The translations under genes were made by a program, and so were the position numbers. A stretch of DNA of 63,839 nt, the filler included. It is 4 parts of 4 records of this genome, joined end to end, with 100 filler letters (N's around TTAATTAATTAA, not from the genome) between each part and the next. Parts side by side here need not be neighbours in the genome. Positions count along the whole stretch, not along the records: positions 1 to 27,884 come from SRR20825019_2845; 3 more parts are not named here. One strand, given 5' to 3'. Positions 2,180-27,823 of this stretch are shown in pieces. The notes beneath the pieces are model-generated. The model was given only the letters and a program-made list of their open reading frames with translations, did not search any database and was not told the DNA's origin. Each line of letters opens with the position of its first letter. Within the stretch, counting starts at the first letter, position 1.

Positions 2180-2233
2180 ACCGTCAACCTAAAGCCCGCA
2201 GAAAATCGCCGCTGAAAATCCCAATCAGATTTC

Positions 2234-4648
2234 ATGAAAGAATCCCGCCATCCTCATCCGCATACTGATCCCCGGCAGCCCCGCCACGAAAGCACCCCGG
2301 GCACGAACCCGCCGGTCTTTGCCTGGAAACCACCCGCCGGGAATGCGGATATCCTGATCCCGGGCAGTCAGCCCCCCGCCTACCTAAAAGGTGCCGAGCT
2401 GACCGGCGACTATACGCTGCTCGTCGCTCGAGATGCGGACTTCACCGACCGGGTCATCGAAGTCTCCGACCTCCATGATTCGGTTTTCCTCCCGGAGCAG
2501 GCATTGCCATCCGGTTCGTATTGGTGGAAATGGATGGTCGGCGAAGCCGTCTCGGAAATCTTCACCTTTACGATCAGCGAAACTGCCGTCTCGCTGGCGG
2601 TCCCGGGCGTCGAAGCCTGGTTGCAACGGTTCCCTTCATCGCATCCGCGGATGCTGATTCTCGCCGACGAAGTTACTGCATGGCGGCAGGCGTTGCCCAA
2701 GGACGAACCGGAAAAACTTAAACTCCTTATCGAAGACGCCGATGACGAGCTCGCCCAATCGCAGCACATGGACGAGCCGGAATTTCTCCCGGATCGTAAA
2801 GTGGATTTCGCCGCCTATCGAAAAATCCATTATCCAACGATGTGGAACTCACGCCGCTTCGTTAAAGGTGCCGAAAAGCTCGCCCTCGCCTGGCTCGCCA
2901 CCGGTGACCGGAGCTACGGGCGCGCTGCCTGCGAACGTATTCTCAGTCTGTGTAAATGGGATCCGGAAGGCTCCTCTTTCTTGGGGCACAACGACGAGGC
3001 TCACATGTCCGTCATCACACTGGGGCCAATCGCCTGTGATTGGGTTTGGGATCTGTTTACCGAGGAAGAACGCGCACGGGTGGTGAAACAATACCGTCAC
3101 CGCGGTATGCTCACCTTCACTCACATGCACGATCAGGGCTGCTACGGGATCACGCGTTTCGATTCCCACGCCGGGCGTGAGATCGTCTTTCTGGCGCAGC
3201 TCGCGCTGGTCTTCCATGAAGAGATCCCCGAGGCCCGCACGTGGCTGGAGTGGCTGCGACCAGTGCTCTGTGGCATTTGGCCAATCTGGGCCGGCGATGA
3301 TGGTGCCTGGGCGGAAGGCATTTCCTATAGTAATGCCTATGTAAACATCATGAGCCGGTTCGCTTCGATTCTGAAGAAAGGCACCGGCACCGACCTTTAC
3401 ACACGACCCTTCTGGAAGAACTACGTCAAATGGAAGAAGGCCGTCTTTCCGGCCTACGCGGAGTGGGCAGGCTTCGGCGATCATACCGAACGTTGGGAAG
3501 CTTCGATGACGAACCATGCCAACATAGCCGAATTGATTGCCCGCGAAACCCAGAGCCCGGAGTTACTCCCTCTGGTAGAGGAACTCCGTCAGGAAGCCCT
3601 CCTCTGCGAACCGACTCCACCCGAACGCGTGATGGGCAGGGTCAACCCCGACCTCTTGCTCGCACCAACCTTGGAACCGGTTTCCGAAACGATCACCTCA
3701 GATAAGGCGGCGCACTTGAGCACGGTTTTCCCCGATGCTGGCTGGGCGTCCCTCCGCACCGGAGTCGATCGCGGACATGACGATATCGCCTTTATCTTCC
3801 GCTCGTCACCCTTCGGTTCGATCAGCCATTCCCATGCCAATAACAACGACTTCATCCTCCACGTCGGCGGCAAGGCGATGGTTATGCCCAGCGGCTACTA
3901 CTGCGGTTATGACTCGCCCCATCACGTGCACTGGGTCTGGCACACCAAGGCCAACAACTGCATCACGCTCTCCGACGCCTCCCAACTGATCCGCTCCAAG
4001 GAATCCCGCGGCTATGTCGAAGCTCATTTCGAAAACGACGACCTCGCCTACTTTCAGGGCAACGCCGATCTCAGTTACCAATTACAGGCACAGCGCTGCC
4101 GTCGCCATGTGGTTTACCTGAAGGCCTCGGGAGCATTCCTGCTCGTGGACGAATTCATCGCCAAGCCCGACATCGTTACCTCCCTTCAATGGAACATCCA
4201 TTCGTGGAATCCCTTCGACGTCAGCGACGACGGCAAGGCCTTCACGCTCACCCGCGAGAAAAGCACGCTCACCGGCCATTTCCTCTTCCATCATCAATCG
4301 TTTATCACGCAGAGCGAAGGATGGGAACCGCCACTCTCGATGGGGCAACCGAATGAACAATGGCATAACCAATATCATCTTCGTTTCACGCCCAACACTA
4401 TGACCGCTCAACGCAATCTCGGCGTGGTGCTCTGCCCGGACTATCCCGGCCACCCCGCCGCCAATGTCTCCAGTCAGCGTGAAGGTGACGCCGAAGTGGC
4501 GACGATCGGTCCGGATTGGGTCGCGGTCAACCAAGCCGACACCATCGACATCGACGGACAAACCACTGACGCCATCGCGGTGGTAAAATCCGGCGGCAAC
4601 CGATACGAAATTACCGTCCAAGGCATCGCGGACAAAACCGGCTCATAA
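2234..4648 (+). CDS. DUF4962/heparinase II/III-like protein (putative oligosaccharide lyase)
   Basis: N-terminal TNPPVFAW, HPRML, WAEGISY, GFGD, and C-terminal FRSSPFGSISHSHANNNDF typical of heparinase II/III-like lyases; no obvious signal peptide. Confidence 0.75.
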   Translation: MKESRHPHPHTDPRQPRHESTPGTNPPVFAWKPPAGNADILIPGSQPPAYLKGAELTGDYTLLVARDADFTDRVIEVSDLHDSVFLPEQALPSGSYWWKWMVGEAVSEIFTFTISETAVSLAVPGVEAWLQRFPSSHPRMLILADEVTAWRQALPKDEPEKLKLLIEDADDELAQSQHMDEPEFLPDRKVDFAAYRKIHYPTMWNSRRFVKGAEKLALAWLATGDRSYGRAACERILSLCKWDPEGSSFLGHNDEAHMSVITLGPIACDWVWDLFTEEERARVVKQYRHRGMLTFTHMHDQGCYGITRFDSHAGREIVFLAQLALVFHEEIPEARTWLEWLRPVLCGIWPIWAGDDGAWAEGISYSNAYVNIMSRFASILKKGTGTDLYTRPFWKNYVKWKKAVFPAYAEWAGFGDHTERWEASMTNHANIAELIARETQSPELLPLVEELRQEALLCEPTPPERVMGRVNPDLLLAPTLEPVSETITSDKAAHLSTVFPDAGWASLRTGVDRGHDDIAFIFRSSPFGSISHSHANNNDFILHVGGKAMVMPSGYYCGYDSPHHVHWVWHTKANNCITLSDASQLIRSKESRGYVEAHFENDDLAYFQGNADLSYQLQAQRCRRHVVYLKASGAFLLVDEFIAKPDIVTSLQWNIHSWNPFDVSDDGKAFTLTREKSTLTGHFLFHHQSFITQSEGWEPPLSMGQPNEQWHNQYHLRFTPNTMTAQRNLGVVLCPDYPGHPAANVSSQREGDAEVATIGPDWVAVNQADTIDIDGQTTDAIAVVKSGGNRYEITVQGIADKTGS

Positions 4649-4651
4649 TCC

Positions 4652-6931
4652 ATGGCGGCTTCACCCGCGCTTCATTGGTCATTTAGTTACGGGCCACATC
4701 ATTCACCCAATTCCAATTTTCGCGCCGAGCTTTCGGAGCATTTGGATTCGTGGGTGCAGGGTGACACCGCCGTTCGCAACGATCGGTCCATGGAGCTGGG
4801 CTACCGCATCCTGCCGAATTTTTGGGACGGTTACGCTGCCGGAAGCGAATTACCGACGAACCAATCCCGGTTGGATTTGGCCTGCGGCAGTCTGCACATC
4901 AGACGCTCCAAGTCAGACGCCAATCAATACGCCTATGCTGTCAGCTATCAGCATGAGACTTCCGGCGAGGACACTCTCGCCCATTATCTCACCTCGACAG
5001 ATCCGATTCGAAACTTGGTAAAAGAGTGGTCGCTCCAAACGACCAACCAAGGACGCGATCTCTACCGCTCAATCCGCATCGACGGAAACATCGAAGAGTC
5101 CGCCATCATGCTATCCGTCAACGGCGGCCCGAGTTTTCAAAATGCTGATTTTCCAGCGGGTGAAACCGTCACTTGTAACTGGTCGCTGTTTGAGTGTTTC
5201 GCCGAACTGGCGCGTCACGCCCCCACCCGGCTGAACCTGTTGGAAAATTTGGAGAAACTCAAACGAGGTTGCCGGATCGCGTTTCTCGAAGAATACGAAC
5301 TCGCGCTGCCCGGCGGTCCCCTCCGCTTGCGCGGCTATGTCCTTCACGGCCCCGGCGCGCCCCCAAGCTACTGGTGGCTGCGCGAGGATGGCCAAGTGGC
5401 CATCATGTCGAACATCTTCAATACGTTTGTGCGCTCAGCACTCGTCGACGCGCGCACCGATACTGCGCCGCGCCAATCCATCTCCACGCCGACAGTTTCT
5501 CCGCATATCCGCTCAACTGATCGTCCCAACATTCTTTTCATCAATACTGATCAGCAAACTTGGGATGCCCTCGGGGCGCACGGCAATCCGCAGCTGCACA
5601 CCCCGAACATGGATCGTCTGGTCCGCCACGGCTGCAGTTTCATGCGCAACTATTCCACCGATCCGGTCTGCGCTCCTGCGCGTTCCTGCTGGGCGACCGG
5701 CCGTTATTCCTCTGAAACCGGCATACCGTTCAATGGAGGCACGCTGCACGATGACATCCCGGATCTCGGCCAGATTCTCAACGCGAACGGCTACCACGCC
5801 TGCCACGCGGGCAAGTGGCATGTGGATGGACGCGATGTCCGCGAATCGTTTCACACTCTCTATTACGGCAACCGCGACATCGGCGCCGGCGGCGGCGAAT
5901 ACTACGATCCCGCTAGCACGCACGCCGCTCTCGATTTCCTCTCATCCTATGAAGACCCCAAGCCCTTCTACCTTCAGATCGGCTATCTCAACCCCCACGA
6001 CATTTGCGAGTATGAGCACAGTCACGAATACCAGACCATTCCCGGACCGCTCCAACAGGGATTTCTAGCCGACGCCGATCTTCCTCCCCTGCCCGCCAAT
6101 CACGACTACGATCCGCGAGAAACCATCACCCAGCAAGTCATGCGGCGCGGCGAAGAACCGCTCATCCATCCGCGCATCGCGAAAGCCGTGAAAACATGGA
6201 GTCCCGATCAATGGCGCTATCTGCGCTGGCAGCTCGATCGTTACACCGAGCAGGTCGATCTGGAAATCGGCTTACTCCTCAACGCTCTCAAGGCCTCTCC
6301 CTTCGCCGACAACACCCTGATCATTTTCTCCGTCGATCACGGCGAAGCCGCCGGTTGCCACCGGATGTTCCAGAAATTCACCCTCTACGAAGAAAGCGTG
6401 CGCACGCCCCTCATCGTTTCCTCGTTCTCGGATCGATTCGGCATCTCACCCAATCATCGCGACACCGAGCATCTCATTTCCGGAGTCGATCTCCTCCCCA
6501 CCGTGCTGGATTATGCGGGGGTTGATTCGCCGCCCCAATCTCACGGACGCAGCCTCCGCCCTCTCATCGAAGGACACGCCGCCGACTGGCGCGACTCCGC
6601 TTATATCGAAAGCAACGTCTGGGGCCGGGCCCTCGTCACCCAGCGCTACAAATACATCACCGAATACCTGCCCGCCACCGGCGAAACCCAAGTCCCCGGT
6701 CCAGATCAATCCCGCCTGGGCCGCGAGGAATTGTATGATCTCAAAACCGATCCCGGCGAGACCCGCAATCTCGCCTACGATTCGGCCATGCAGGACACTC
6801 TGACCAGTTTCCGCGACCAACTTCTCGCACACGAATCAACCCTCCAACGCCGCCCGCTCAACAACCCGCAAGCCGAACAAACGATGCACACCTGGGCTGA
6901 ACGATTATACGATCACCGAAGCAAGCTCTAA
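4652..6931 (+). CDS. S1 (formylglycine) sulfatase fused to an unknown N-terminal domain
   Basis: From about aa 290: RPNILFINTDQQ, CAPAR (CxPxR), GKWH, DHG, LYEESVRTPLI, EELYDLKTDPGE. The first ~280 aa are not recognisable. Confidence 0.85.
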   Translation: MAASPALHWSFSYGPHHSPNSNFRAELSEHLDSWVQGDTAVRNDRSMELGYRILPNFWDGYAAGSELPTNQSRLDLACGSLHIRRSKSDANQYAYAVSYQHETSGEDTLAHYLTSTDPIRNLVKEWSLQTTNQGRDLYRSIRIDGNIEESAIMLSVNGGPSFQNADFPAGETVTCNWSLFECFAELARHAPTRLNLLENLEKLKRGCRIAFLEEYELALPGGPLRLRGYVLHGPGAPPSYWWLREDGQVAIMSNIFNTFVRSALVDARTDTAPRQSISTPTVSPHIRSTDRPNILFINTDQQTWDALGAHGNPQLHTPNMDRLVRHGCSFMRNYSTDPVCAPARSCWATGRYSSETGIPFNGGTLHDDIPDLGQILNANGYHACHAGKWHVDGRDVRESFHTLYYGNRDIGAGGGEYYDPASTHAALDFLSSYEDPKPFYLQIGYLNPHDICEYEHSHEYQTIPGPLQQGFLADADLPPLPANHDYDPRETITQQVMRRGEEPLIHPRIAKAVKTWSPDQWRYLRWQLDRYTEQVDLEIGLLLNALKASPFADNTLIIFSVDHGEAAGCHRMFQKFTLYEESVRTPLIVSSFSDRFGISPNHRDTEHLISGVDLLPTVLDYAGVDSPPQSHGRSLRPLIEGHAADWRDSAYIESNVWGRALVTQRYKYITEYLPATGETQVPGPDQSRLGREELYDLKTDPGETRNLAYDSAMQDTLTSFRDQLLAHESTLQRRPLNNPQAEQTMHTWAERLYDHRSKL

Positions 6932-7046
6932 GCCGCGGAGCCGTTTCCCTCCGCTAGGAAGTTTCCCCGCCACAGAAACTCTCCTCCTGCCGAAATTATA
7001 CCGGCTAAGCACCGTCCGTGTCCGGCCCCGAACACGACGGAACGGG

Positions 7047-8174
7047 TTATGTCAGCGGTGGAAAAGTCAGATCATGGAGAACATCACCGGCCAGATTATG
7101 CGTGCGCACGCGTAATTCGGTGCCGCTCGCGTTGCCCTCAATCCAAGTGGCCCGTTCCGGTTCACGGTCACCGCCGATGAGCTGACCATAGGGCCACTCA
7201 CTGGTAGGTGGCATCCAGGTCGGCACATGGTTGTGCCCGGAAATGATCACTTGGGTGCCCCATGCGACAAGTGAATCGTGCCATGCCTCGCGGCTGCGGC
7301 CACTGTGCCGATCATAACCCTCCTGATCATAATCTTGCGGCCCCTCATCGATCCAACGGAGCGGAATATGGCAGAACACCACGCGGTAAGGTGCGTCACG
7401 CATTTCGGGACGTTGAATCACTTCGGCCAGCCACGCGGCTTGCTCCGCGCGTAATTTCTCGAAGGCCACGCGACCGTGGAAGGTGGGATGCGCATCGGGT
7501 TTATCCTCACCCGTGTGTAAGCAAATGACGCCGACCGGACCGCTGCGGAACGCATAGAACGGTCGCCCCCCGGGTGTGGCCACGATACCGGGCATCCGAA
7601 ACGCATGCGGCCCACGCACATCGTGATTGCCCCATACCTGAAAAACCGGTCGCCCCTGAGAAATGTCGCATCCTCCGGGGTGAAGCAACGTTGGCACCAG
7701 CTCCGCTTCGTCTTTCCAATCGTTGCAGGTATCTCCATTCCAAACGAGAAAATCGGCCGCCGGCGTGGCGGCATGCAGCTGTTGGATTCCAGCAATATTT
7801 TGATGGGTATCATTCCACACCACAAAGTGCGTGGACAACGCTTCCGGATCGAGCGTGCGAAACGTTTTCCAGTCACTCGTAACCGTTTCCCCATCGTCGA
7901 TCGCCGTGGTGATGGAGCGCACCCGATACTCGCTCCCCGCCGCAAGGTCATCGAGGCGCACGCGAATCACCGCATCGTTCTGGGGCACAAAGCCATAAGC
8001 ATCGCAGCCAATCGTGCGACGGATTCCATCGGCTGTTTCCAGCTCTACCTGAGCCCGACTGGGACGACTCACGGCCCAAACCGCCTCAATACCATCGGTC
8101 CGCGGTGCCATCAGCACGAGCGGTGATCGAAGAAGATTCGGCTGAACCATCGGATTATTGAGCTGAGAATCCAT
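7047..8174 (-). CDS. Purple acid phosphatase-like metallophosphoesterase with FN3-like N-terminus
   Basis: WNDTH, WNGD, WGNHD and ISGHNH metallophosphoesterase motifs. Start placed at the ATG at 8174 (MDSQL); the ORF track extends it to 8237. Confidence 0.8.
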   Translation of the reverse strand: MDSQLNNPMVQPNLLRSPLVLMAPRTDGIEAVWAVSRPSRAQVELETADGIRRTIGCDAYGFVPQNDAVIRVRLDDLAAGSEYRVRSITTAIDDGETVTSDWKTFRTLDPEALSTHFVVWNDTHQNIAGIQQLHAATPAADFLVWNGDTCNDWKDEAELVPTLLHPGGCDISQGRPVFQVWGNHDVRGPHAFRMPGIVATPGGRPFYAFRSGPVGVICLHTGEDKPDAHPTFHGRVAFEKLRAEQAAWLAEVIQRPEMRDAPYRVVFCHIPLRWIDEGPQDYDQEGYDRHSGRSREAWHDSLVAWGTQVIISGHNHVPTWMPPTSEWPYGQLIGGDREPERATWIEGNASGTELRVRTHNLAGDVLHDLTFPPLT

Positions 8175-9800: not shown

Positions 9801-9820
9801 GATTAGAGTCTCCCTGTTGC

Positions 9821-11308
9821 TCAGTCATTAACATTGCGGTTGCCAAATTTGAAATTGAGGAGGGTCACAAACATGACCATCGCGAAGAGAGCCCAAACCA
9901 CGGCTGACGCATAGCCGAGACGGCCGGATTCAAACCCTTCGATAAAGACGAAATAACTCAGCGTGGTGGTCGCCCCGGCCGGCCCCCCCTGGGTCATCGC
10001 CCGGGCCATTTCGAAGCCGCCCTGCAGACCATTGATCACACTCATCACGACGATGAAGAATGTGACCGGAGCGAGTTGCGGCCAGGTGACGTTCCAGAAT
10101 TTCTGCCAGCCGTTCGCACCATCAATCTCCGAGGCTTCGTAGAGCTCCTGCGGGATGTTGGTAATGCCCGCGATGTAGAGAATCATGTTGTTGGAGCCCA
10201 CAGCCGCCCAGAAGGCCATGATCATAATCGCGGGTTTCGCCCAGTAATAATCGGCGAGCCAATCCGGAGGCGCCATTTCACCGGTTGCCGCCATCGCCGG
10301 TAATCGGACCGCCACCATGGCCAAGCCGATGAAGATCAGCTGGCCCACAATCGCACCGGAAAGCGGGAGCACCAATTTGGCAAACCCTTCACCTGAGGCG
10401 ACGCGCCGAAACGGCTCCTGCAATGCGCGCCTCATGACGAAAAACAACAATAGGCCAAGATTTCCGAGGAGGAGGAGAATCGCGAGCCAGGAACCCTCCA
10501 TCCAACGCCAACCCAAATAGATTGGCAGAAGTGAGACCACGGTAAGGCCCATGAGCGCACCCCGGCCCAACTCGCCATCAGACCATGCCTGGCCGATGCG
10601 ACGATAAAGGAAGGCGATGATCGTGAGGCCGATGGCCGCGCTGAGTATGCCCAACGCCGGACCCACCGCCGGGGGAAGTGATTGAAACAGGTCCTGAATT
10701 CCGGAGACCACCGGACGCAATGCCGCGTTCACCGGACCGGTATGCGGGTTATACATTTTTTTCCAGAGGAGGAAAGTCGCCACACCCGCCGTGAAGTGAG
10801 GCGCGTAAAACATCGTGCGGTAAACCGTCGCCTTGCCGAATAGGCCGGCCAGCAAAATCCCTGCAAAGAGGATGGCGATTAGCAGCAGCATATTGCCGAA
10901 CTCAAATCCGGTAAACAGGAGCACCGCCAGCGAGATCATCAACACGCCCATCGCGATGAAGTGGATCCGGCGTAACCCCGAGGGCCCGTTGAGTTCCTTG
11001 GTCAGCAGAATGGCCGCGAGCAGACTTCCGATAATCGCCACCGGAATCCCCAACATGAAAAACAACGTGTTGCTCAGATACTGCCAGAAGGCCGGATGCG
11101 AAAACATCCGCTCAAAGTTATCCCAACCGATAAACTCGATGGACTCGGAGCGAAACATATTGTGCCGGCGCACATCCCAATTCGTAAACGCGAGGATGAA
11201 GCTGAGCACCAACGGGATCACCGTGAAGGCCAGGAAGCCTGCGATGCTCGGGCCGAGAAACGTCAGACCGGTGACGAGACGTCGAAATGTAGGACGATTA
11301 AAGGTCAT
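9821..11308 (-). CDS. Carbohydrate ABC transporter permease (MalF-like) with large hydrophobic insertions
   Basis: FIGWDNF, YRTMFYAP, ELYEASEIDGA and GYASA motifs; 495 aa with extra transmembrane blocks. Confidence 0.9.
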   Translation of the reverse strand: MTFNRPTFRRLVTGLTFLGPSIAGFLAFTVIPLVLSFILAFTNWDVRRHNMFRSESIEFIGWDNFERMFSHPAFWQYLSNTLFFMLGIPVAIIGSLLAAILLTKELNGPSGLRRIHFIAMGVLMISLAVLLFTGFEFGNMLLLIAILFAGILLAGLFGKATVYRTMFYAPHFTAGVATFLLWKKMYNPHTGPVNAALRPVVSGIQDLFQSLPPAVGPALGILSAAIGLTIIAFLYRRIGQAWSDGELGRGALMGLTVVSLLPIYLGWRWMEGSWLAILLLLGNLGLLLFFVMRRALQEPFRRVASGEGFAKLVLPLSGAIVGQLIFIGLAMVAVRLPAMAATGEMAPPDWLADYYWAKPAIMIMAFWAAVGSNNMILYIAGITNIPQELYEASEIDGANGWQKFWNVTWPQLAPVTFFIVVMSVINGLQGGFEMARAMTQGGPAGATTTLSYFVFIEGFESGRLGYASAVVWALFAMVMFVTLLNFKFGNRNVND

Positions 11309-12765
11309 GAGTCAGTGCTCCACCCGCGCTCACGGTAGTATACTTGGTAAAAGGGATTCGTAATCAAATGGGCCGGCACCAGCTCACCGGCGGCGCGGAG
11401 TCTTTCAATGGTGGCCTGATCTTTCATTAATTTCTCGTGCAGGGCTTTCATTTGCGGATCCGCCGAGATGTTCTGCTCTATCTCGCGATTCACGGCCGCT
11501 TCCGCGCGCGCCATCGCTTCCTCCGGCGTGTAGACCCCGGCCAGAGCCGCGAGCCGATATTCGGATTCGAGCCGGTTAAAGGACGTGGGCAGAATAAACG
11601 GACTCGCCTCCGGCGTGACCGCATACTCCATCAGATCCACCGTTTCTTGATGGATCTGCCATTCCTGGGGAAAATCCTTCGGATGCCTATATTCCTCAAG
11701 CGTCGTATAGTAGGGGATCGGTGGAATCGCATCCGCCGTTTCGACAACATTCAGATTGTAGACCTCACTGGTCAGAAATTCGAGCAGGTAGGCCGCGAGT
11801 TCCTTGTGCTTCGAATTCTTATAAATCCCCACACTCCCCGTCCCCATCAAGGTAACCGGAAACGATTCGTAAGGAGTCATTCGCACCTCCATCTTCATCT
11901 CGGGATGATCCCGTAACTGAACCAGAGAGTAACGAGCACCCGTCAACAGCGCGTAACGATCCCGGAGAAACAGTTGGATTCTCGAAGTGTTGGTATCGGA
12001 ACCCGCAAAGAAATCCAGATCCGCTTGGGTGGGAATGATCCGGTCCTCATTGGTCCACTTGTCGATGAGTTTGATCACCCGAATCGTTTCGGGATTATCC
12101 AACGTCGCCCTGGTCATAGTCTCGTTCAGGACCGTGCGCCCCATGCCCCGCCGCAAGGTAGCGACATTGATCGAGTCGCAGAAAAAGATGCGCTCACGCG
12201 GGTCTTTCCCCTGATTCGCCGCAGCGACAAAAGCCTTCGCCGTGCGCTCGAATTCGTCCAGCGTCCAGCGCAGAGAAGGCAACGGGATGCCGTATTTCTC
12301 AAACATACTCACATTGAGAAAGTAGGTTTGGAGCGACGTTGACCGGGGAAACCCGACTTGCTCGCCATCGATCATGAAAGAAGGCGCCGAAGCCTCCCAG
12401 GTTTTATCCAGGGTGAAACCGTGTTTCTCCGCCAGCGGACGAAGATCTTCCATCATGCCGGTGGCGTGAAACAACCAGGCCTCGTCCCGGGCCATCGAGA
12501 TAATATCCGCCCCGACACCCGAGACGCCCTGAATCAGTTTCTTGGAGGCGTCGGAATTGGTGCTGTCCAATCGCAACTCAAACTGAGGATAGCCCTTTTC
12601 CTTCAGCCATGCATGAAACAGCTCCACCTGCTCGACGCGGGCGCTGTTAATATTCGTCACCCAATAGAGAATCGGCACCTCGCTCTGCACGGACGAACGC
12701 GTGGAACGATCGATCGCGGTCGCGATGCAAAGAGCGAAGAAGATACTGAGGAGAATATATTTCAT
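11305..12765 (-). CDS. ABC transporter extracellular sugar-binding protein
   Basis: N-terminal hydrophobic signal/anchor; NVSMFEKYGIPLP, WTLDEF and SKHKELAAYLLEFL motifs; ATGA overlap with the permease. Confidence 0.85.
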   Translation of the reverse strand: MKYILLSIFFALCIATAIDRSTRSSVQSEVPILYWVTNINSARVEQVELFHAWLKEKGYPQFELRLDSTNSDASKKLIQGVSGVGADIISMARDEAWLFHATGMMEDLRPLAEKHGFTLDKTWEASAPSFMIDGEQVGFPRSTSLQTYFLNVSMFEKYGIPLPSLRWTLDEFERTAKAFVAAANQGKDPRERIFFCDSINVATLRRGMGRTVLNETMTRATLDNPETIRVIKLIDKWTNEDRIIPTQADLDFFAGSDTNTSRIQLFLRDRYALLTGARYSLVQLRDHPEMKMEVRMTPYESFPVTLMGTGSVGIYKNSKHKELAAYLLEFLTSEVYNLNVVETADAIPPIPYYTTLEEYRHPKDFPQEWQIHQETVDLMEYAVTPEASPFILPTSFNRLESEYRLAALAGVYTPEEAMARAEAAVNREIEQNISADPQMKALHEKLMKDQATIERLRAAGELVPAHLITNPFYQVYYRERGWSTDS

Positions 12766-12790
12766 GCCGCGGGCGGGAAACTATACGCGA

Positions 12791-13180
12791 TTACTTGGCG
12801 GGCATCCGCGCGATGGCGTCAATTTCCACTTTGATGCCTTTCATCAAGCCGGCCTGCACCGTGGTGCGGGCGGGACGGATACCGGTGAAGAATTCACCGT
12901 AGGTATTATTAAAACCTTCGAAATACTTCATGTCCGAAAGGTAGCAAGTGCAGCGCACCACGTGATGACGGTCGATGCCGGCATTCTTCAAAATCAGGTC
13001 GAGATTTTTCAGCGTCAGGGCGGTCTCTTCCTCAATCGTGCTGGCCAGTCCCACCCCCGTTTTCATATCAAGAGGTCCCTGCCCACTGATGTAGAGCCAG
13101 CCGTCGATTTCCACCGCTGCAGAGAACAGTCCGTAGGTAAATTCCTTCTCAGGATGTTTGATTTCTTTTTTGTCTATCAT
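12791..13180 (-). CDS. RidA/YjgF/UK114 family protein
   Basis: LYISGQGP, NNTYGEFF, RPARTTVQA and VEIDAIA motifs. Confidence 0.92.
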   Translation of the reverse strand: MIDKKEIKHPEKEFTYGLFSAAVEIDGWLYISGQGPLDMKTGVGLASTIEEETALTLKNLDLILKNAGIDRHHVVRCTCYLSDMKYFEGFNNTYGEFFTGIRPARTTVQAGLMKGIKVEIDAIARMPAK

Positions 13181-13225
13181 GGGAATGGGTTCGTTTTTTT
13201 GATTAAAACTATGTAATTCGATTTA

Positions 13226-13251
13226 ACCACAGAGTGCACGGATTACACGGA
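13226..13251 (+). repeat. Left inverted repeat of the GxxExxY cassette
   Basis: ACCACAGAGTGCACGGATTACACGGA; three CAC(A/G)GA cores at 9-bp period. Confidence 0.85.
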
Positions 13252-13267
13252 TTTGAGGATAGGGTTT

Positions 13268-13630
13268 TCAGTTTGAGACACGTTTTATCCCAAGCTTGGA
13301 ATGTTTGAAATTTAGAAGCAGAGCGGTTTTTAAACCTGTGATATTTAAATAACCGAGCATCTGAGCGAGATGGGTATCGTTGAAGGCAGTGCAAACTTTG
13401 GAATCCACAACAACCAGGTCTTCCACCACTAGGTCAGGGACCAGTGTGCCGATTGATTCGCCTTCGTATTGGACAGGAAACTGTTTCTGACTTTCACAGC
13501 GTAGACCTAGCTTGGTCAACTCGATCACCAGTGCGCGTTCATAGAGTTTCTCATCAAGACCCGGTTTCAGGGTGAAGAGAACCTTATGGGCCGCACCAAT
13601 GATCTTTTCTGTGAGGTCATTGATTTTCAT
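13268..13630 (-). CDS. GxxExxY protein (PD-(D/E)xK nuclease superfamily)
   Basis: 120 aa; PGLDEKLY (GxxExxY), PDLVVEDLVVVDSK and AQMLGYL (QxxxY) motifs. Confidence 0.92.
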   Translation of the reverse strand: MKINDLTEKIIGAAHKVLFTLKPGLDEKLYERALVIELTKLGLRCESQKQFPVQYEGESIGTLVPDLVVEDLVVVDSKVCTAFNDTHLAQMLGYLNITGLKTALLLNFKHSKLGIKRVSN

Positions 13631-13695
13631 AGGGCTATTTAGTCACTGGTTCTGATCATTGAAGAGGGAGTGGTTTATGATAGGTAGAATCGGAT

Positions 13696-13721
13696 TCCGT
13701 GCATTCTGTGCTCTCTGTGGT
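13696..13721 (-). repeat. Right inverted repeat of the GxxExxY cassette
   Basis: Reverse complement is ACCACAGAGAGCACAGAATGCACGGA, 22/26 identical to the left repeat. Confidence 0.85.
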
Positions 13722-13771
13722 AAAAGCTCGGGGTCAGATATTTGGCATTCGGTTCATCGGGTAAAAATCGC

Positions 13772-14773
13772 TCAGGTCATCCGGACAAAAGTGGAAAGAT
13801 CTACCTGGTTTTCCAATTCCTCTCCAGCCAGATAACGCTCCACATTTTTGAGAGCACGTTGGCCGCAATCACGTCCGCGATCAATCGTGGCTCCTCCCAT
13901 GTGCGGCAGGAGAAAAACATTCGGCATCGTGCGCAACGGCGAATCCTGAGGGAGCGGTTCCTGAGCATAAACATCGAGGGCAACTTCGATGTTACCTTCG
14001 CTCGCCACTTTAATCAGCGCCTCTTCGTCCACCGTTTTTCCCCGGCCATTATTTGTGAAACAGGCTCCTTTCGGTAAGAGACGCAGTAGTTTCTCGTCCA
14101 CGCAACGCTCTGTTTCCAGCGTCAAGGGCAAGAGATTCACCAACACATCCGATTCCGCATAAAGGGCTTCAACCGAAACGGCGCGGGATACGCCATATTC
14201 GGCGAGAACCTCGTCGCTCACAAAGGGATCCCAAGTCGAGATCACCGGATTAAACGGCTGCATTAATTGACTCAGTGCTCGGGGAATGCCGCCAAAGCCG
14301 TGAATCCCCACCCGCTTGCCGTAAAGGCTGCGATTGTGCGTGGTGCGCTCCCGCCACTGTCCATTCTCGCGTAATTGGTAGCCCCATTTGGCCACCCGAC
14401 GCAGCGCGTTTAAAACCAGCAACAAGGCGCACTCGGCCACATAAGGTCCAACCCAGGGCCCCCAATTTGTGAGAATCAGACCGGCTTTCAAATGCTCTTC
14501 GTTAATCTGCTTTTTCGACGAGCCACACAGGAAACAAAAATACTCCAGACTGCCCCCATTCGACTGCAGGGCCGTCAAAGGTATCGGAGGCATATCCCAA
14601 CCGCCGATGATTATTTCAGGGGCGAAATCGTCGAGAGCTTGATGGAAACCATCCACATCCGCCGCCTCCAAACAGCGGCATTCATTCGGCATCGAATCGA
14701 TCCACAAATCAAGCCCGTCGGGGAACAGGTGGTCCCGCTCAAAAGCACTGGTGATCAGGAGAATCTTTTTCAT
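13772..14773 (-). CDS. D-isomer-specific 2-hydroxyacid dehydrogenase
   Basis: VGIHGFGGI Rossmann motif, LPLTLET, NNGRG, ALDVYAQEPLP and LPHMGG. Confidence 0.9.
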   Translation of the reverse strand: MKKILLITSAFERDHLFPDGLDLWIDSMPNECRCLEAADVDGFHQALDDFAPEIIIGGWDMPPIPLTALQSNGGSLEYFCFLCGSSKKQINEEHLKAGLILTNWGPWVGPYVAECALLLVLNALRRVAKWGYQLRENGQWRERTTHNRSLYGKRVGIHGFGGIPRALSQLMQPFNPVISTWDPFVSDEVLAEYGVSRAVSVEALYAESDVLVNLLPLTLETERCVDEKLLRLLPKGACFTNNGRGKTVDEEALIKVASEGNIEVALDVYAQEPLPQDSPLRTMPNVFLLPHMGGATIDRGRDCGQRALKNVERYLAGEELENQVDLSTFVRMT

Positions 14774-25990: not shown

Positions 25991-26965
25991 ATGCCCGCAC
26001 CCACCCGCATCATCGACTGCCATAACCACATCGGAGCCGAACTGCTCTTTTATCTCCATGGTGATCATCCCTATTGTCAGGACATCTCCGCGATGGTCGA
26101 AAATATCGGAGCCCAGCGGATCACCGATTGGGTTGTCTTTCCGTTCGTAACCAACGTTTCTTTCGAGTTCGCCGGTTTTCAGGACGGAGAAGTGGTTTTC
26201 AACCCCAAGGGCGCCGTGCCCTATGCCTACGAAAACGAACGCCTCCTCCGCGAAATCTATGACTACTTCCCGGAACACGCGAAGCGGATCATGCCCCTCG
26301 TCATCCTCGACCCATCGCGCCGCGTAGCCGAACAAGTGACCGCACTCCGCGCCCTGCGTGAAAAATACACATTCTCGGGCTTTAAGATCCAGCCGACCAT
26401 CATCAAATCTCCCGTCCGTGCCCTCCTCAACGAAGGCCGCGCCTTTCTCGAACTCGCCGAAGAGTGGAACTGCCCGATTTTGATCCACTCCAGTATCGCC
26501 GAGAACGACATCTGGTCGCAGTGCAGTGACATCCTCGACATCGCCGAACAAACTCCCGACGTGCGATTCTGTCTCGCCCACTCCTGCCGCTACGATCGGC
26601 CTTCACTCGACCGTATGGCCACCCTGCCCAACGCCTGGTTCGACTGTTCCGCCCACATCATTCACTGCCAAAGCGTCGAACGCGATCTGCCCAATGTTGC
26701 GCTCAAGGAGCGGCGTTTCGCCACCGACTACGCCAATCCCACCCAGGTCCTCCACGACCTCAATGCCGCTTATCCTAACAAACTGATGTGGGGCAGCGAT
26801 TCTCCTTTCTACAGTTGGATCACGTCAAAGGGTCGCCTCCCCTTCGCACTCAAAAGTTCCTATCAGGAGGAAACCGACTGCCTCTTCGGTCTCGAAGAAA
26901 AAATCATCTCCGACATCGCCTGCGACAACATCCTAAACTTCCTCGGCAATCAAGAAGACTCCTGA
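25991..26965 (+). CDS. Amidohydrolase family protein (possible lactonase/decarboxylase)
   Basis: IIDCHNH (HxH), GFKIQP, PILIHS, CLAH and LMWGSDSP motifs. Confidence 0.8.
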   Translation: MPAPTRIIDCHNHIGAELLFYLHGDHPYCQDISAMVENIGAQRITDWVVFPFVTNVSFEFAGFQDGEVVFNPKGAVPYAYENERLLREIYDYFPEHAKRIMPLVILDPSRRVAEQVTALRALREKYTFSGFKIQPTIIKSPVRALLNEGRAFLELAEEWNCPILIHSSIAENDIWSQCSDILDIAEQTPDVRFCLAHSCRYDRPSLDRMATLPNAWFDCSAHIIHCQSVERDLPNVALKERRFATDYANPTQVLHDLNAAYPNKLMWGSDSPFYSWITSKGRLPFALKSSYQEETDCLFGLEEKIISDIACDNILNFLGNQEDS

Positions 26966-26980
26966 AATTGAATTCAAACC

Positions 26981-27039
26981 GGGCGCGGACCAGCCGCGCT
27001 CCTACCAGCGAACATAGGGGCGAGCCTGATCTGCGCCCG
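26981..27039. repeat. Pair of REP-like palindromes in opposite orientation
   Basis: Minus strand GTAG-GAGCGCGG-CTGGT-CCGCGCCC (26981-27005) and a degenerate plus-strand ATAG-GGGCG...CGCCC (27014-27039). Confidence 0.6.
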
Positions 27040-27058
27040 ATTCGCCTCTCCACCATTT

Positions 27059-27823
27059 ATGACTCCTAATCCGTTTTCTCTCCAAGGTCGCACTGCCCTC
27101 GTCACCGGCTCCAGCAGTGGCATTGGCCAGGCCACTGCCGCCGCGATTCACGCCGCCGGGGCCAAGGTTATCCGCCATGGCATCGAAGCGGAAGATCCTG
27201 ATCCGACCGCCGGCACGCCCTACCTCGCCGGTGATCTCCTCAGCGAAACCGGACCCGAGGATCTGCTCGGAGCCGCCTTTGCTCACAGCCCCGACCTCGA
27301 TCTGCTCGTCTGCAATGCCGGCAATTGCCACAACGCGCCCTTTCTCGAGATGACGCGCGAGCGTTGGGATCGCACCATCGATCTCAATCTCAAGGCGAAC
27401 TACTTCGCCATTCAGGCCTTCGCCCGGAATCTCGCCACGGAGAACCGTTCCGGATCCGTTGTCATCACCGGATCGGTCAACGGTTTTCAGGCCGAGATCA
27501 ACTCCTCCGCCTACGACACCTCCAAAGGTGGCGTCGCCATGATGGTGCGCGGACTCGCGATGGAACTCGCCGACTTCAACATCCGCGTCAATGGCATCGC
27601 CCCCGGTCTGATTTTCACGCCGAAGACCCGCATCGGATTCGGCCGCAATCCCCAGCGTCAGGCCCATTACGAAAAGAAGGTGCTCCAGGGCCGCCTCGGC
27701 GAACCGGAGGATTGCACGGGAACCATCGTCTTTCTGCTCTCTCCAGCCTCTGAATATATCACCGGAGAAATGATCGTCGTCGATGGAGGTCTCACAGTCG
27801 GTCAAGTCGGCAAGATGGAATGA
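27059..27823 (+). CDS. SDR family oxidoreductase
   Basis: TGSSSGIG, CNAG, YDTSK (YxxxK), IRVNGIAPG and VVDGG motifs. Confidence 0.93.
   Translation: MTPNPFSLQGRTALVTGSSSGIGQATAAAIHAAGAKVIRHGIEAEDPDPTAGTPYLAGDLLSETGPEDLLGAAFAHSPDLDLLVCNAGNCHNAPFLEMTRERWDRTIDLNLKANYFAIQAFARNLATENRSGSVVITGSVNGFQAEINSSAYDTSKGGVAMMVRGLAMELADFNIRVNGIAPGLIFTPKTRIGFGRNPQRQAHYEKKVLQGRLGEPEDCTGTIVFLLSPASEYITGEMIVVDGGLTVGQVGKME

Follow-up and report, generated by a model that had tools for sequence, protein, structure and literature searches.

What kind of element carries a single small nuclease-like gene between two inverted repeats and sits, as a compact unit, inside a sugar-use operon? The question is raised by positions 13222-13725 of a 63,839-nt stretch of DNA (the window, by which we mean the whole stretch analysed), where a 504-bp unit consists of one 120-aa GxxExxY/PDDEXK_3 gene within 30-nt inverted arms. 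An initial annotation had offered two answers: a mobile unit bounded by terminal inverted repeats (TIRs), with a nuclease that binds iterated 9-mers, or a pair of arms that join in the mRNA in the manner of an intervening sequence (IVS). The answer developed here, to which we would give an even chance of being correct, is that of a selfish repeat-and-enzyme system in which the nuclease reads phased cores, similar to the repetitive extragenic palindromic (REP) doublets, or REPINs, and their REP-associated tyrosine transposases (RAYTs). The parts of the unit, in the orientation of its gene, are as follows.

13696..13725, minus strand: upstream arm (gene orientation); an outer T run, then ACCACAGAG-AGCACAGAA-TGCACGGA, with three CACRGA cores at 9-nt spacing
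13631..13695, minus strand: leader from the upstream arm to the ATG of the GxxExxY gene, 65 nt; sigma-70-like promoter not found
13268..13630, minus strand: GxxExxY/PDDEXK_3 gene, 120 aa (Pfam, NCBIfam, conserved residues, AlphaFold2 model)
13252..13267, minus strand: spacer from the stop codon to the downstream arm, 16 nt
13222..13251, plus strand: downstream arm, outer to inner on the plus strand; TTTA, then ACCACAGAG-TGCACGGAT-TACACGGA

Read directly, the core part of the downstream arm (13226-13251) is ACCACAGAGTGCACGGATTACACGGA and the reverse complement of 13696-13721 is ACCACAGAGAGCACAGAATGCACGGA; the two are equal at 22 of 26 positions, which is the count that the initial annotation had given. 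An inverted-repeat search extends the arms to 30 nt (13222-13251 and 13696-13725; 83% complementary, with 444 nt between them), and this extension brings in the outer T/A runs. Each arm holds three CACRGA cores at a 9-nt period, with the ACCAC end outermost beside the T/A run, again as first described. The two-core pattern CACRGA-N3-CACRGA occurs four times in the window, every time within the two arms; the shuffle expectation is 0.03, and four copies were reached in none of 100 shuffles.

In comparison with relatives, the unit behaves as a discrete DNA insertion with an insertion-type polymorphism. Three genomes were used to compare the site: G001 (a Cephaloticoccus metagenome-assembled genome, MAG), G002 (an Opitutaceae MAG) and G132. 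The 2-hydroxyacid dehydrogenase gene upstream of the unit is 87% identical in G001 and 80% identical in G002, and the spacer between this gene and the downstream RidA gene, which measures 591 nt in the window, shrinks to 42 and 40 nt, respectively, and neither spacer retains any remnant of an arm. The empty allele with adjacent dehydrogenase and RidA genes, for which the initial annotation had proposed to look, thus exists in two of the three relatives that have this junction. In G132 the same junction (L054) carries the cassette, with a protein 88-89% identical to that of the window and with the core part of the upstream arm identical at 25 of 26 positions, next to a leader that has diverged. 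Based on the concatenated sequences of four flanking proteins (RidA, dehydrogenase, GFO and MR/MLE), the window is 87.8% identical to G001, 79.2% to G002 and 76.3% to G132; since the cassette is present, absent, absent and present in this order and none of the relatives is further from the window than G132, the pattern calls for two or more gains or clean losses. Furthermore, at third codon positions the window and G132 agree at 76 of 121 sites in the cassette gene, compared with 195 of 459 in RidA plus dehydrogenase (Fisher p 9e-5). The cassette gene is therefore less diverged than its flanks, which hints at a later spread into the same site, strong constraint being the alternative. Among 30 loci with 61-89% identical proteins in other Opitutaceae, flanking homology to the window was found only at L054, and among 151 Opitutaceae genomes the dehydrogenase-RidA junction occurs only in G001 and G132, so that the history of the site rests on four genomes. 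A metagenome scan with the dehydrogenase found no relative, and three genomes of other phyla that were reached via weak dehydrogenase matches lack a PF13366 gene.

The immediate surroundings of the unit are the following.

13726..13771, no strand assigned: 46 nt from the stop codon of the dehydrogenase gene to the upstream arm; host spacer or extra element sequence, unalignable with the 42- and 40-nt empty spacers
13181..13221, no strand assigned: 41 nt from the downstream arm to the RidA start codon; starts TAAATC after GTGGT
13772..14773, minus strand: upstream host gene, D-isomer 2-hydroxyacid dehydrogenase, PF02826 (Pfam)
12791..13180, minus strand: downstream host gene, RidA/L-PSP family, PF01042 (Pfam)

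These two Pfam neighbours bear out the placing of the unit in a sugar-use operon between the dehydrogenase and RidA genes. The full run of minus-strand genes around it comprises an MR/MLE enolase-type gene, a GFO/IDH/MocA oxidoreductase, the 2-hydroxyacid dehydrogenase, the cassette, RidA, a solute-binding protein and two ABC permeases. The TAAATC that follows GTGGT is common to the window and G132 and is nearly so in one G001 hairpin, and the first bases of 13181-13221 therefore probably belong to the element. Similarly, the first ~50 nt of the leader (13631-13695) resemble the inner sequence of a gene-less G001 hairpin.

The protein encoded by the only gene between the arms (13268-13630, minus strand) matches PF13366 PDDEXK_3 with an E value of 2e-34 (118.9 bits, cut-off 22) and TIGR04256 GxxExxY of NCBIfam with an E value of 3.6e-36 (124 bits, cut-off 35), in line with the earlier description of a lone 120-aa GxxExxY gene. 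It possesses the motif G24-x-x-E27-x-x-Y30 and the nuclease residues D66 and D76-x-K78 (D76-S-K78), and G24, E27, Y30, D66, K78, N107 and R117 are unchanging across 44 sequences. The AlphaFold2 model (pLDDT 96.8) predicts a restriction-endonuclease-like alpha/beta fold. Foldseek returned weak matches only (E 1.4e-3 or weaker, TM 0.4-0.6), and all but two of the matches listed are PD-(D/E)xK nucleases, including a lambda-exonuclease-like protein (1.4e-3), Cas4 SSO0001, Hjc and EndA. The assignment of GxxExxY proteins to the PD-(D/E)xK superfamily, as given in the initial annotation, is consistent with these residues and matches; a search of the PDB by sequence found no relevant solved relative. 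The relevant passage of a 2012 survey of the superfamily gives the function of PDDEXK_3 as 'Unknown' (PMC3424549).

Between the window and G132, the cassette gene is 93% identical at codon positions 1 and 2 compared with 63% at position 3, a pattern that indicates purifying selection, and the enzyme looks intact. Used as a query, the window protein gave two matches in 72,556 plasmid records and none in phage records. The orthologous gene of G132 reads ATA (L054:1498-1500) where the window has its ATG start, and this copy may thus have lost its start codon. In-frame stop codons are present in some other GxxExxY genes, for instance L015 (G001:C2:253781-254128), which implies that decaying copies exist beside intact ones.

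Are inverted, phased arms a trait of the gene family or a peculiarity of this locus? For each gene, an arm score was taken as the best ungapped inverted repeat between its 250-nt flanks, with a threshold of at least 14; the highest score over 190 shuffles was 13. This threshold was reached by 38 of 47 Opitutaceae GxxExxY genes, by all 14 further GxxExxY genes from three repeat-rich genomes and by 17 of 30 from Bacteroidota, compared with one of 101 proxy genes (from the window and five other loci), that one being the GxxExxY gene of the window itself, so that none of the 100 other control genes reached it. The enrichment of an inverted repeat in the flanks of homologues, which had been suggested as a check, is therefore strong in Opitutaceae and Bacteroidota alike. 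The arms are also phased: shifting them against themselves gives a self-match of 0.467 for 9 nt and 0.361 for 10 nt, as against 0.256 after shuffling, and 72 of 78 arms peak at one of these shifts. The unit types vary between genes (CACGGAT, CGCGGAT, CACAGAG, CGCAGAG, CGCGAAG, CACGAAA and others), and in most cases (A)AC(C) comes after a T run at the outer end. One genome can have up to 14 diversified gene copies, as G001 with its 14 PF13366 genes does, each with its own arms.

What, then, constrains the arms? Mismatches between the two arms of an element affect 36 of 564 core positions compared with 62 of 195 linker positions (p 2e-17), a contrast that is partly circular, as a motif match in one of the two arms was enough to define a core; within the cores they fall mostly on the fourth, variable base. 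In G090, 288 arms have three perfect cores (control 0) and 98 more have exactly one core mismatch, which amounts to ~2% divergence per core site, while each of the two 3-nt linkers shows 8 variants in 20 arms. Ten G090 hairpins show no covariation of linkers from one arm to the other, the likeness within elements being 3.4 and that between elements 3.4 of 6 (1,080 of 2,000 permutations were as high). With mismatches mostly in the linkers and no covariation between these, the symmetry looks like that of mirror-image binding-site arrays rather than that of a stem maintained by pairing.

These observations bear directly on the second of the original proposals. According to this explanation the arms would pair in the polycistronic transcript and be cut by RNase III or a similar enzyme, looping out the cassette and rendering the insertion harmless, and the nuclease would have a separate role such as homing or defence. 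Indeed, the minimum-energy RNA fold of 13205-13745 (minus strand) pairs the arms around the gene (z -3.85), and a promoter and terminator scan found neither a sigma-70-like promoter nor a minus-strand terminator within the unit. Cassette genes are also co-directional with their neighbours in 49 of the 56 cases where both neighbours agree (p 7e-9; neighbour direction was taken crudely, as the longest open frame in 1.5 kb), and the cassette of the window, which has the direction of its operon, is probably transcribed together with it. Genes of PF05635, the family of open reading frames (ORFs) found in 23S rRNA IVSs, have analogous inverted phased arms, and the Coxiella burnetii 23S rRNA IVS, which bears the S23p ORF, is described as excised by RNase III and regarded as selfish (PMC4990558). 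The likeness to such an IVS extends to a ~120-aa ORF within complementary ends, to a size of ~0.4-0.5 kb, to the location in a transcribed region and to the bracket layout that PF05635 shows in these very genomes. The GxxExxY unit differs in lying between protein-coding genes of an mRNA operon, where 12700-14200 gave no Rfam match (E <= 1), and in its ORF, which belongs to PF13366 and not to PF05635. More importantly, its arms are constrained in their phased cores and not in their pairing: the mismatch types between arms (33 G·U-type, 47 A·C-type and 97 transversions) show no sense-strand excess of wobble pairs, mismatches are concentrated in linkers, and linkers resemble one another as much between elements as between the arms of one element. 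Pairing alone accounts neither for the 9-10-nt phasing, nor for the link between protein clade and core described below, nor for the dependence of repeats on the gene at genome level. The mRNA proposal hence keeps a fold that joins the arms and loses its support as the main constraint; we consider it distinctly unlikely as a full explanation, although an RNA-level role of the arms can coexist with a selfish DNA element as a feature that helps the host to tolerate it.

In five relatives (G001, G002, G024, G090 and G132), PF05635 '23S rRNA IVS protein' genes (L132-L143) lie within inverted arrays of different sequences that repeat every 6-8 nt; the arm score is 14 or more for 7 of the 12. The bracket layout is thus common to two unrelated small proteins, the PF05635 products being four-helix bundles whose genes have arrays of their own.

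A further pointer to the protein itself comes from a tree of 77 GxxExxY proteins, which has few columns and many open forks, with three large clades starred. Within the superclade that includes the window (42 rows), the base after the core is T by majority in 29 cassettes and G by majority in none; within the other large clade (28 rows) it is G by majority in 15 and T by majority in none. This split holds separately in Verrucomicrobiota and in Bacteroidota. Of the remaining rows of the tree, 8 are mixed (the window among them), 1 has an A majority and 17 have too few units. Since core type goes with protein clade in each phylum, gene and arms are inherited, or co-evolve, as one unit, and the comparison of sequences points to recognition of the iterated cores by the protein.

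Copies of the repeat are not confined to cassettes. When counted in relatives as two-core pattern hits per genome, there are 64 in G001 (control 3) and 20 in G002 (control 0), and for 56 of the 64 in G001 the nearest of that genome's 14 PF13366 genes is over 1 kb away. The gene-less copies form intergenic hairpins of 57-120 nt whose ends are again of the T-run/AAC type; whichever strand is read, a T run precedes and an A run follows the stem, which is opposite to the order in a terminator. One such hairpin (G001:C3:222226-222345) can be aligned, with a single polarity, to both ends of the window's cassette, even outside the arms, and looks like an internal-deletion derivative. Around nine hairpins, the nearest 6 nt match at 21 of 54 positions as direct and at 28 of 54 as inverted repeats, in what is a small sample; the flank logo of the same nine indicates that the T-run/AA is part of the inverted repeat, the sample being too small for a target motif. 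G090 yielded ten elements in L150-L179, six of which make up a rather uniform set of 85-88-nt hairpins with TTTTCC...GGAAAA ends and CACGGAA units. Identical two-core matches stand at exact 200-nt intervals in G081 (C1:1292315, 1292515 and 1292715), which suggests a tandem array of hairpin units.

At the level of whole genomes, repeats and gene go together. The 151 Opitutaceae genomes contain 9,939 pattern matches and 576 PF13366 genes, which number 1-14 per genome where found. Genomes in which no PF13366 gene was found (19) have a median of 3 matches and a maximum of 23, compared with a median of 53.5 (interquartile range 26.5-96, maximum 672) in the 132 gene-bearing ones; the association is clear in statistics that ignore phylogeny and assembly completeness (Mann-Whitney p 1e-10, rho 0.47). 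The thought that the motif might be scattered independently of GxxExxY genes is therefore correct for the individual copies, most of which are gene-less in relatives, but fails for the genome as a whole.

Such a wealth of dispersed hairpins might also reflect a domesticated system, in which the hairpins work for the host where they stand, insulating or stabilising transcripts or acting as nucleoid or replication sites to which the GxxExxY protein binds, and are kept by selection without moving. This would suit the low divergence of cores and the free linkers among ~150 dispersed elements of G090, the position of the elements between genes, the polarity of their T and A runs, opposite to that of a terminator, and the purifying selection on the gene. 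It sits poorly with the presence or absence of the whole unit at one junction among near relatives, with close homologues in unrelated contexts, with up to 14 diversified gene copies per genome that each have their own arms, with broken copies containing internal stops, and with copy numbers that range from 0 to 672 pattern matches among genomes of one family. Domestication as the whole account is in our estimation unlikely, and an in-place host role of the hairpins could coexist with a selfish repeat-and-enzyme system.

The closest known parallel is provided by REP/REPIN elements and their RAYT genes in Pseudomonas and Enterobacteria, as described in PMC3116915. The GxxExxY system resembles them in four respects: the gene is flanked by its own short inverted repeats; many gene-less, hairpin-capable inverted doublets lie between genes (in G001 and as the three-core arms of G090, though not in the 64 kb of the window); repeat family and gene co-occur by genome, as counted above without correction for phylogeny; and different gene lineages correspond to different repeat sequences. 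It departs from them in its enzyme, a PD-(D/E)xK nuclease (PF13366) and not the HUH Y1 transposase (PF01797) that is the defining feature of REPIN/RAYT. In each arm, 6-bp cores recur at a phase of 9-10 bp instead of a single REP palindrome, the gene is present in up to 14 copies per genome in place of a single, vertically inherited copy, and at one junction some relatives have the whole gene-bearing unit and others lack it.

Y1 genes occur in the same genomes and invite the suggestion that GxxExxY is a mere passenger. The arms would then be substrates of another recombinase, either a Y1/HUH transposase of the RAYT type or an integron-type integrase acting on attC-like palindromes, with the GxxExxY gene as a frequent cargo. 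PF01797 Y1 transposase-like genes are found in five of five relatives tested, PF05635 genes stand in a like bracket, and the outer ends (T-run-AAC ... GTT-A-run) are reminiscent of the AAC/GTT core sites in integron attC. Yet all six Y1 loci examined have a different inverted repeat, four of them GGGGTCAGG..., and phased CRC-type units are absent within 1.5 kb of five, with a single match at the sixth. Moreover, core type and GxxExxY clade go together in two phyla, repeat abundance follows the presence of GxxExxY, and the arms stand on both sides of the gene and not as one site after it. We regard the passenger explanation as highly improbable, and RAYT as the mobiliser of GxxExxY hairpins was set aside since the Y1 genes carry other repeats. 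At L145-L148, Y1 transposase-like genes of ~320 aa lie within 25-33-nt inverted repeats that start with GGGGTCAGG, which constitutes a separate repeat-plus-gene system in the same genomes.

Two further classes of element share parts of this layout. TIR transposons and miniature inverted-repeat transposable elements (MITEs), some of which have iterated subterminal binding sites, are similar in their inverted ends, in internal-deletion derivatives that outnumber the gene-bearing form and in intergenic insertion. Unlike these elements, the unit has a PF13366 gene as its only ORF, with no known transposase family and no visible target duplication, and copies within one genome have common cores but differing linkers. 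Integron gene cassettes carry an attC palindrome after the ORF and form arrays next to intI. The GxxExxY unit resembles them as a small promoterless gene co-oriented with its surroundings, with imperfect palindromes that have AAC/GTT-like outer ends, but its repeats bracket the gene, it is a single unit in an ordinary operon and its core type follows its own protein; no search was made for an integrase.

How might such a system work? The unit is one copy of a widespread family of insertion cassettes, laid out as a PD-(D/E)xK gene within two inverted arrays of about three 6-bp cores, 9-10 bp apart and with a T-run/AAC outer end. This copy was inserted into the dehydrogenase-RidA spacer of ~40 nt, or has been cleanly lost from it elsewhere. 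The nuclease would recognise the phased cores that its own arms carry, with a core variant for every protein lineage, and would act on its own cassette as well as, in trans, on the far commoner gene-less hairpins, spreading or maintaining them. The cassette would ride in operons in sense orientation and be expressed by read-through, and the unit might move when its ends, as duplex or as hairpin/cruciform, are cut and the host repairs the break, without target duplication. The anatomy of the unit, the insertion polymorphism, the association of arms and gene in two phyla, the gene-less derivatives, the co-occurrence by genome, the constraint on cores and the match of clade to core were all observed directly; it is from these that we infer that the protein binds DNA, cuts at the outer ends and acts in trans, and how the unit might move. 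The initial proposal of a TIR-bounded mobile unit with a nuclease that binds 9-mers accordingly stands as far as discrete insertion, repeat enrichment and core-linked evidence are concerned, while binding, cutting and self-movement are its conjectural part.

Several points, together with the circularity of the core contrast and the phylogeny-blind statistics mentioned above, weigh against this account. There is no visible target-site duplication at the unit, as the initial annotation had already remarked, and a looser scan of the window for paired cores 7-11 nt apart found no further 9-nt-phased pair, and hence no second copy. The spacers outside the arms are no more like each other or the empty sites than shuffles are, and the two empty sites are mutually unalignable; the insertion point, the exact ends and any target duplication can therefore not be mapped by comparing filled with empty sites. 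In G132, the cassette at this site could be ancestral, with two clean losses, instead of the outcome of targeted insertion. Contigs from four sequencing runs with this DNA contain the filled form only, with neither joints nor an empty allele; two runs offer only fragments, and none of the runs listed for this DNA is an RNA run. Among the gene-bearing genomes, 31 of 132 have at most 23 matches of this core pattern, and G090 has abundant CACGGAA hairpins without a gene of exactly that core in its assembly, the arms of its two GxxExxY genes being CACGAA and CGCAAAG/CGCAGAA. Hundreds of dispersed copies in which cores are conserved and linkers are free agree with in-place selection for a host function at least as well as with recent copying. 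Finally, cassettes of like layout exist for the unrelated family PF05635, and the layout alone does not, therefore, require a nuclease.

A broader version of the same idea would join these threads into a new class of prokaryotic mobile element. Its only encoded protein, the 120-aa nuclease, would read 6-bp cores phased at 9-10 bp at both ends, cut at the T-run/AAC boundary and move without target duplication, for example by resolving hairpin or cruciform ends. Cassettes of the four-helix-bundle 'IVS protein' would be a sister family on the same chassis, and the ORF-bearing IVSs of 23S rRNA would be such elements that landed in rRNA genes. This joint reading is tentative, and in our view somewhat doubtful.

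The comparison with relatives also revealed other length differences. A stretch of 4.9 kb in the window (2183-7056) is missing from the syntenic place in G001; it has two large genes, one encoding DUF4962 plus a heparinase II/III C-terminal domain (2234-4648) and the other a sulfatase (4652-6931). At 26943-27060 the window has ~110 nt of extra intergenic sequence where G132 and the two paralogous copies of G001 have a spacer of a few bases; this insert contains a GC-rich stem (GGGCGCGG...CCGCGCTCC) and is outside the CACRGA family. Conversely, 145 nt lie between two ABC permease genes in G001 (L094, G001:C3, ~201057-201202) compared with 8 nt in the window (9813-9821). This insert contains a hairpin and phased CTTGAGGG-like units, and may represent another repeat family.

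A search of the full-text literature, with subscription journals and supplements outside its reach, found no description of a pairing of GxxExxY genes with repeats, and the cassettes together with the gene-less hairpins look like an undescribed kind of selfish DNA. By analogy, this would be a system of repeat plus cognate enzyme functionally like REPIN/RAYT but with a different enzyme fold. GxxExxY/PDDEXK_3 is a large family, present in many phyla and without an assigned function. If the nuclease and the phased repeats are indeed one system, the family would gain a testable function, and the thousands of intergenic hairpins in genomes of Verrucomicrobiota and Bacteroidota would be explained. 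It would also provide a second, mechanistically different long-lived intragenomic replicator of the REPIN/RAYT type and a possible source of ORF-bearing rRNA intervening sequences. Finally, a short protein able to read phased arrays of a programmable 6-bp core would be of practical interest.

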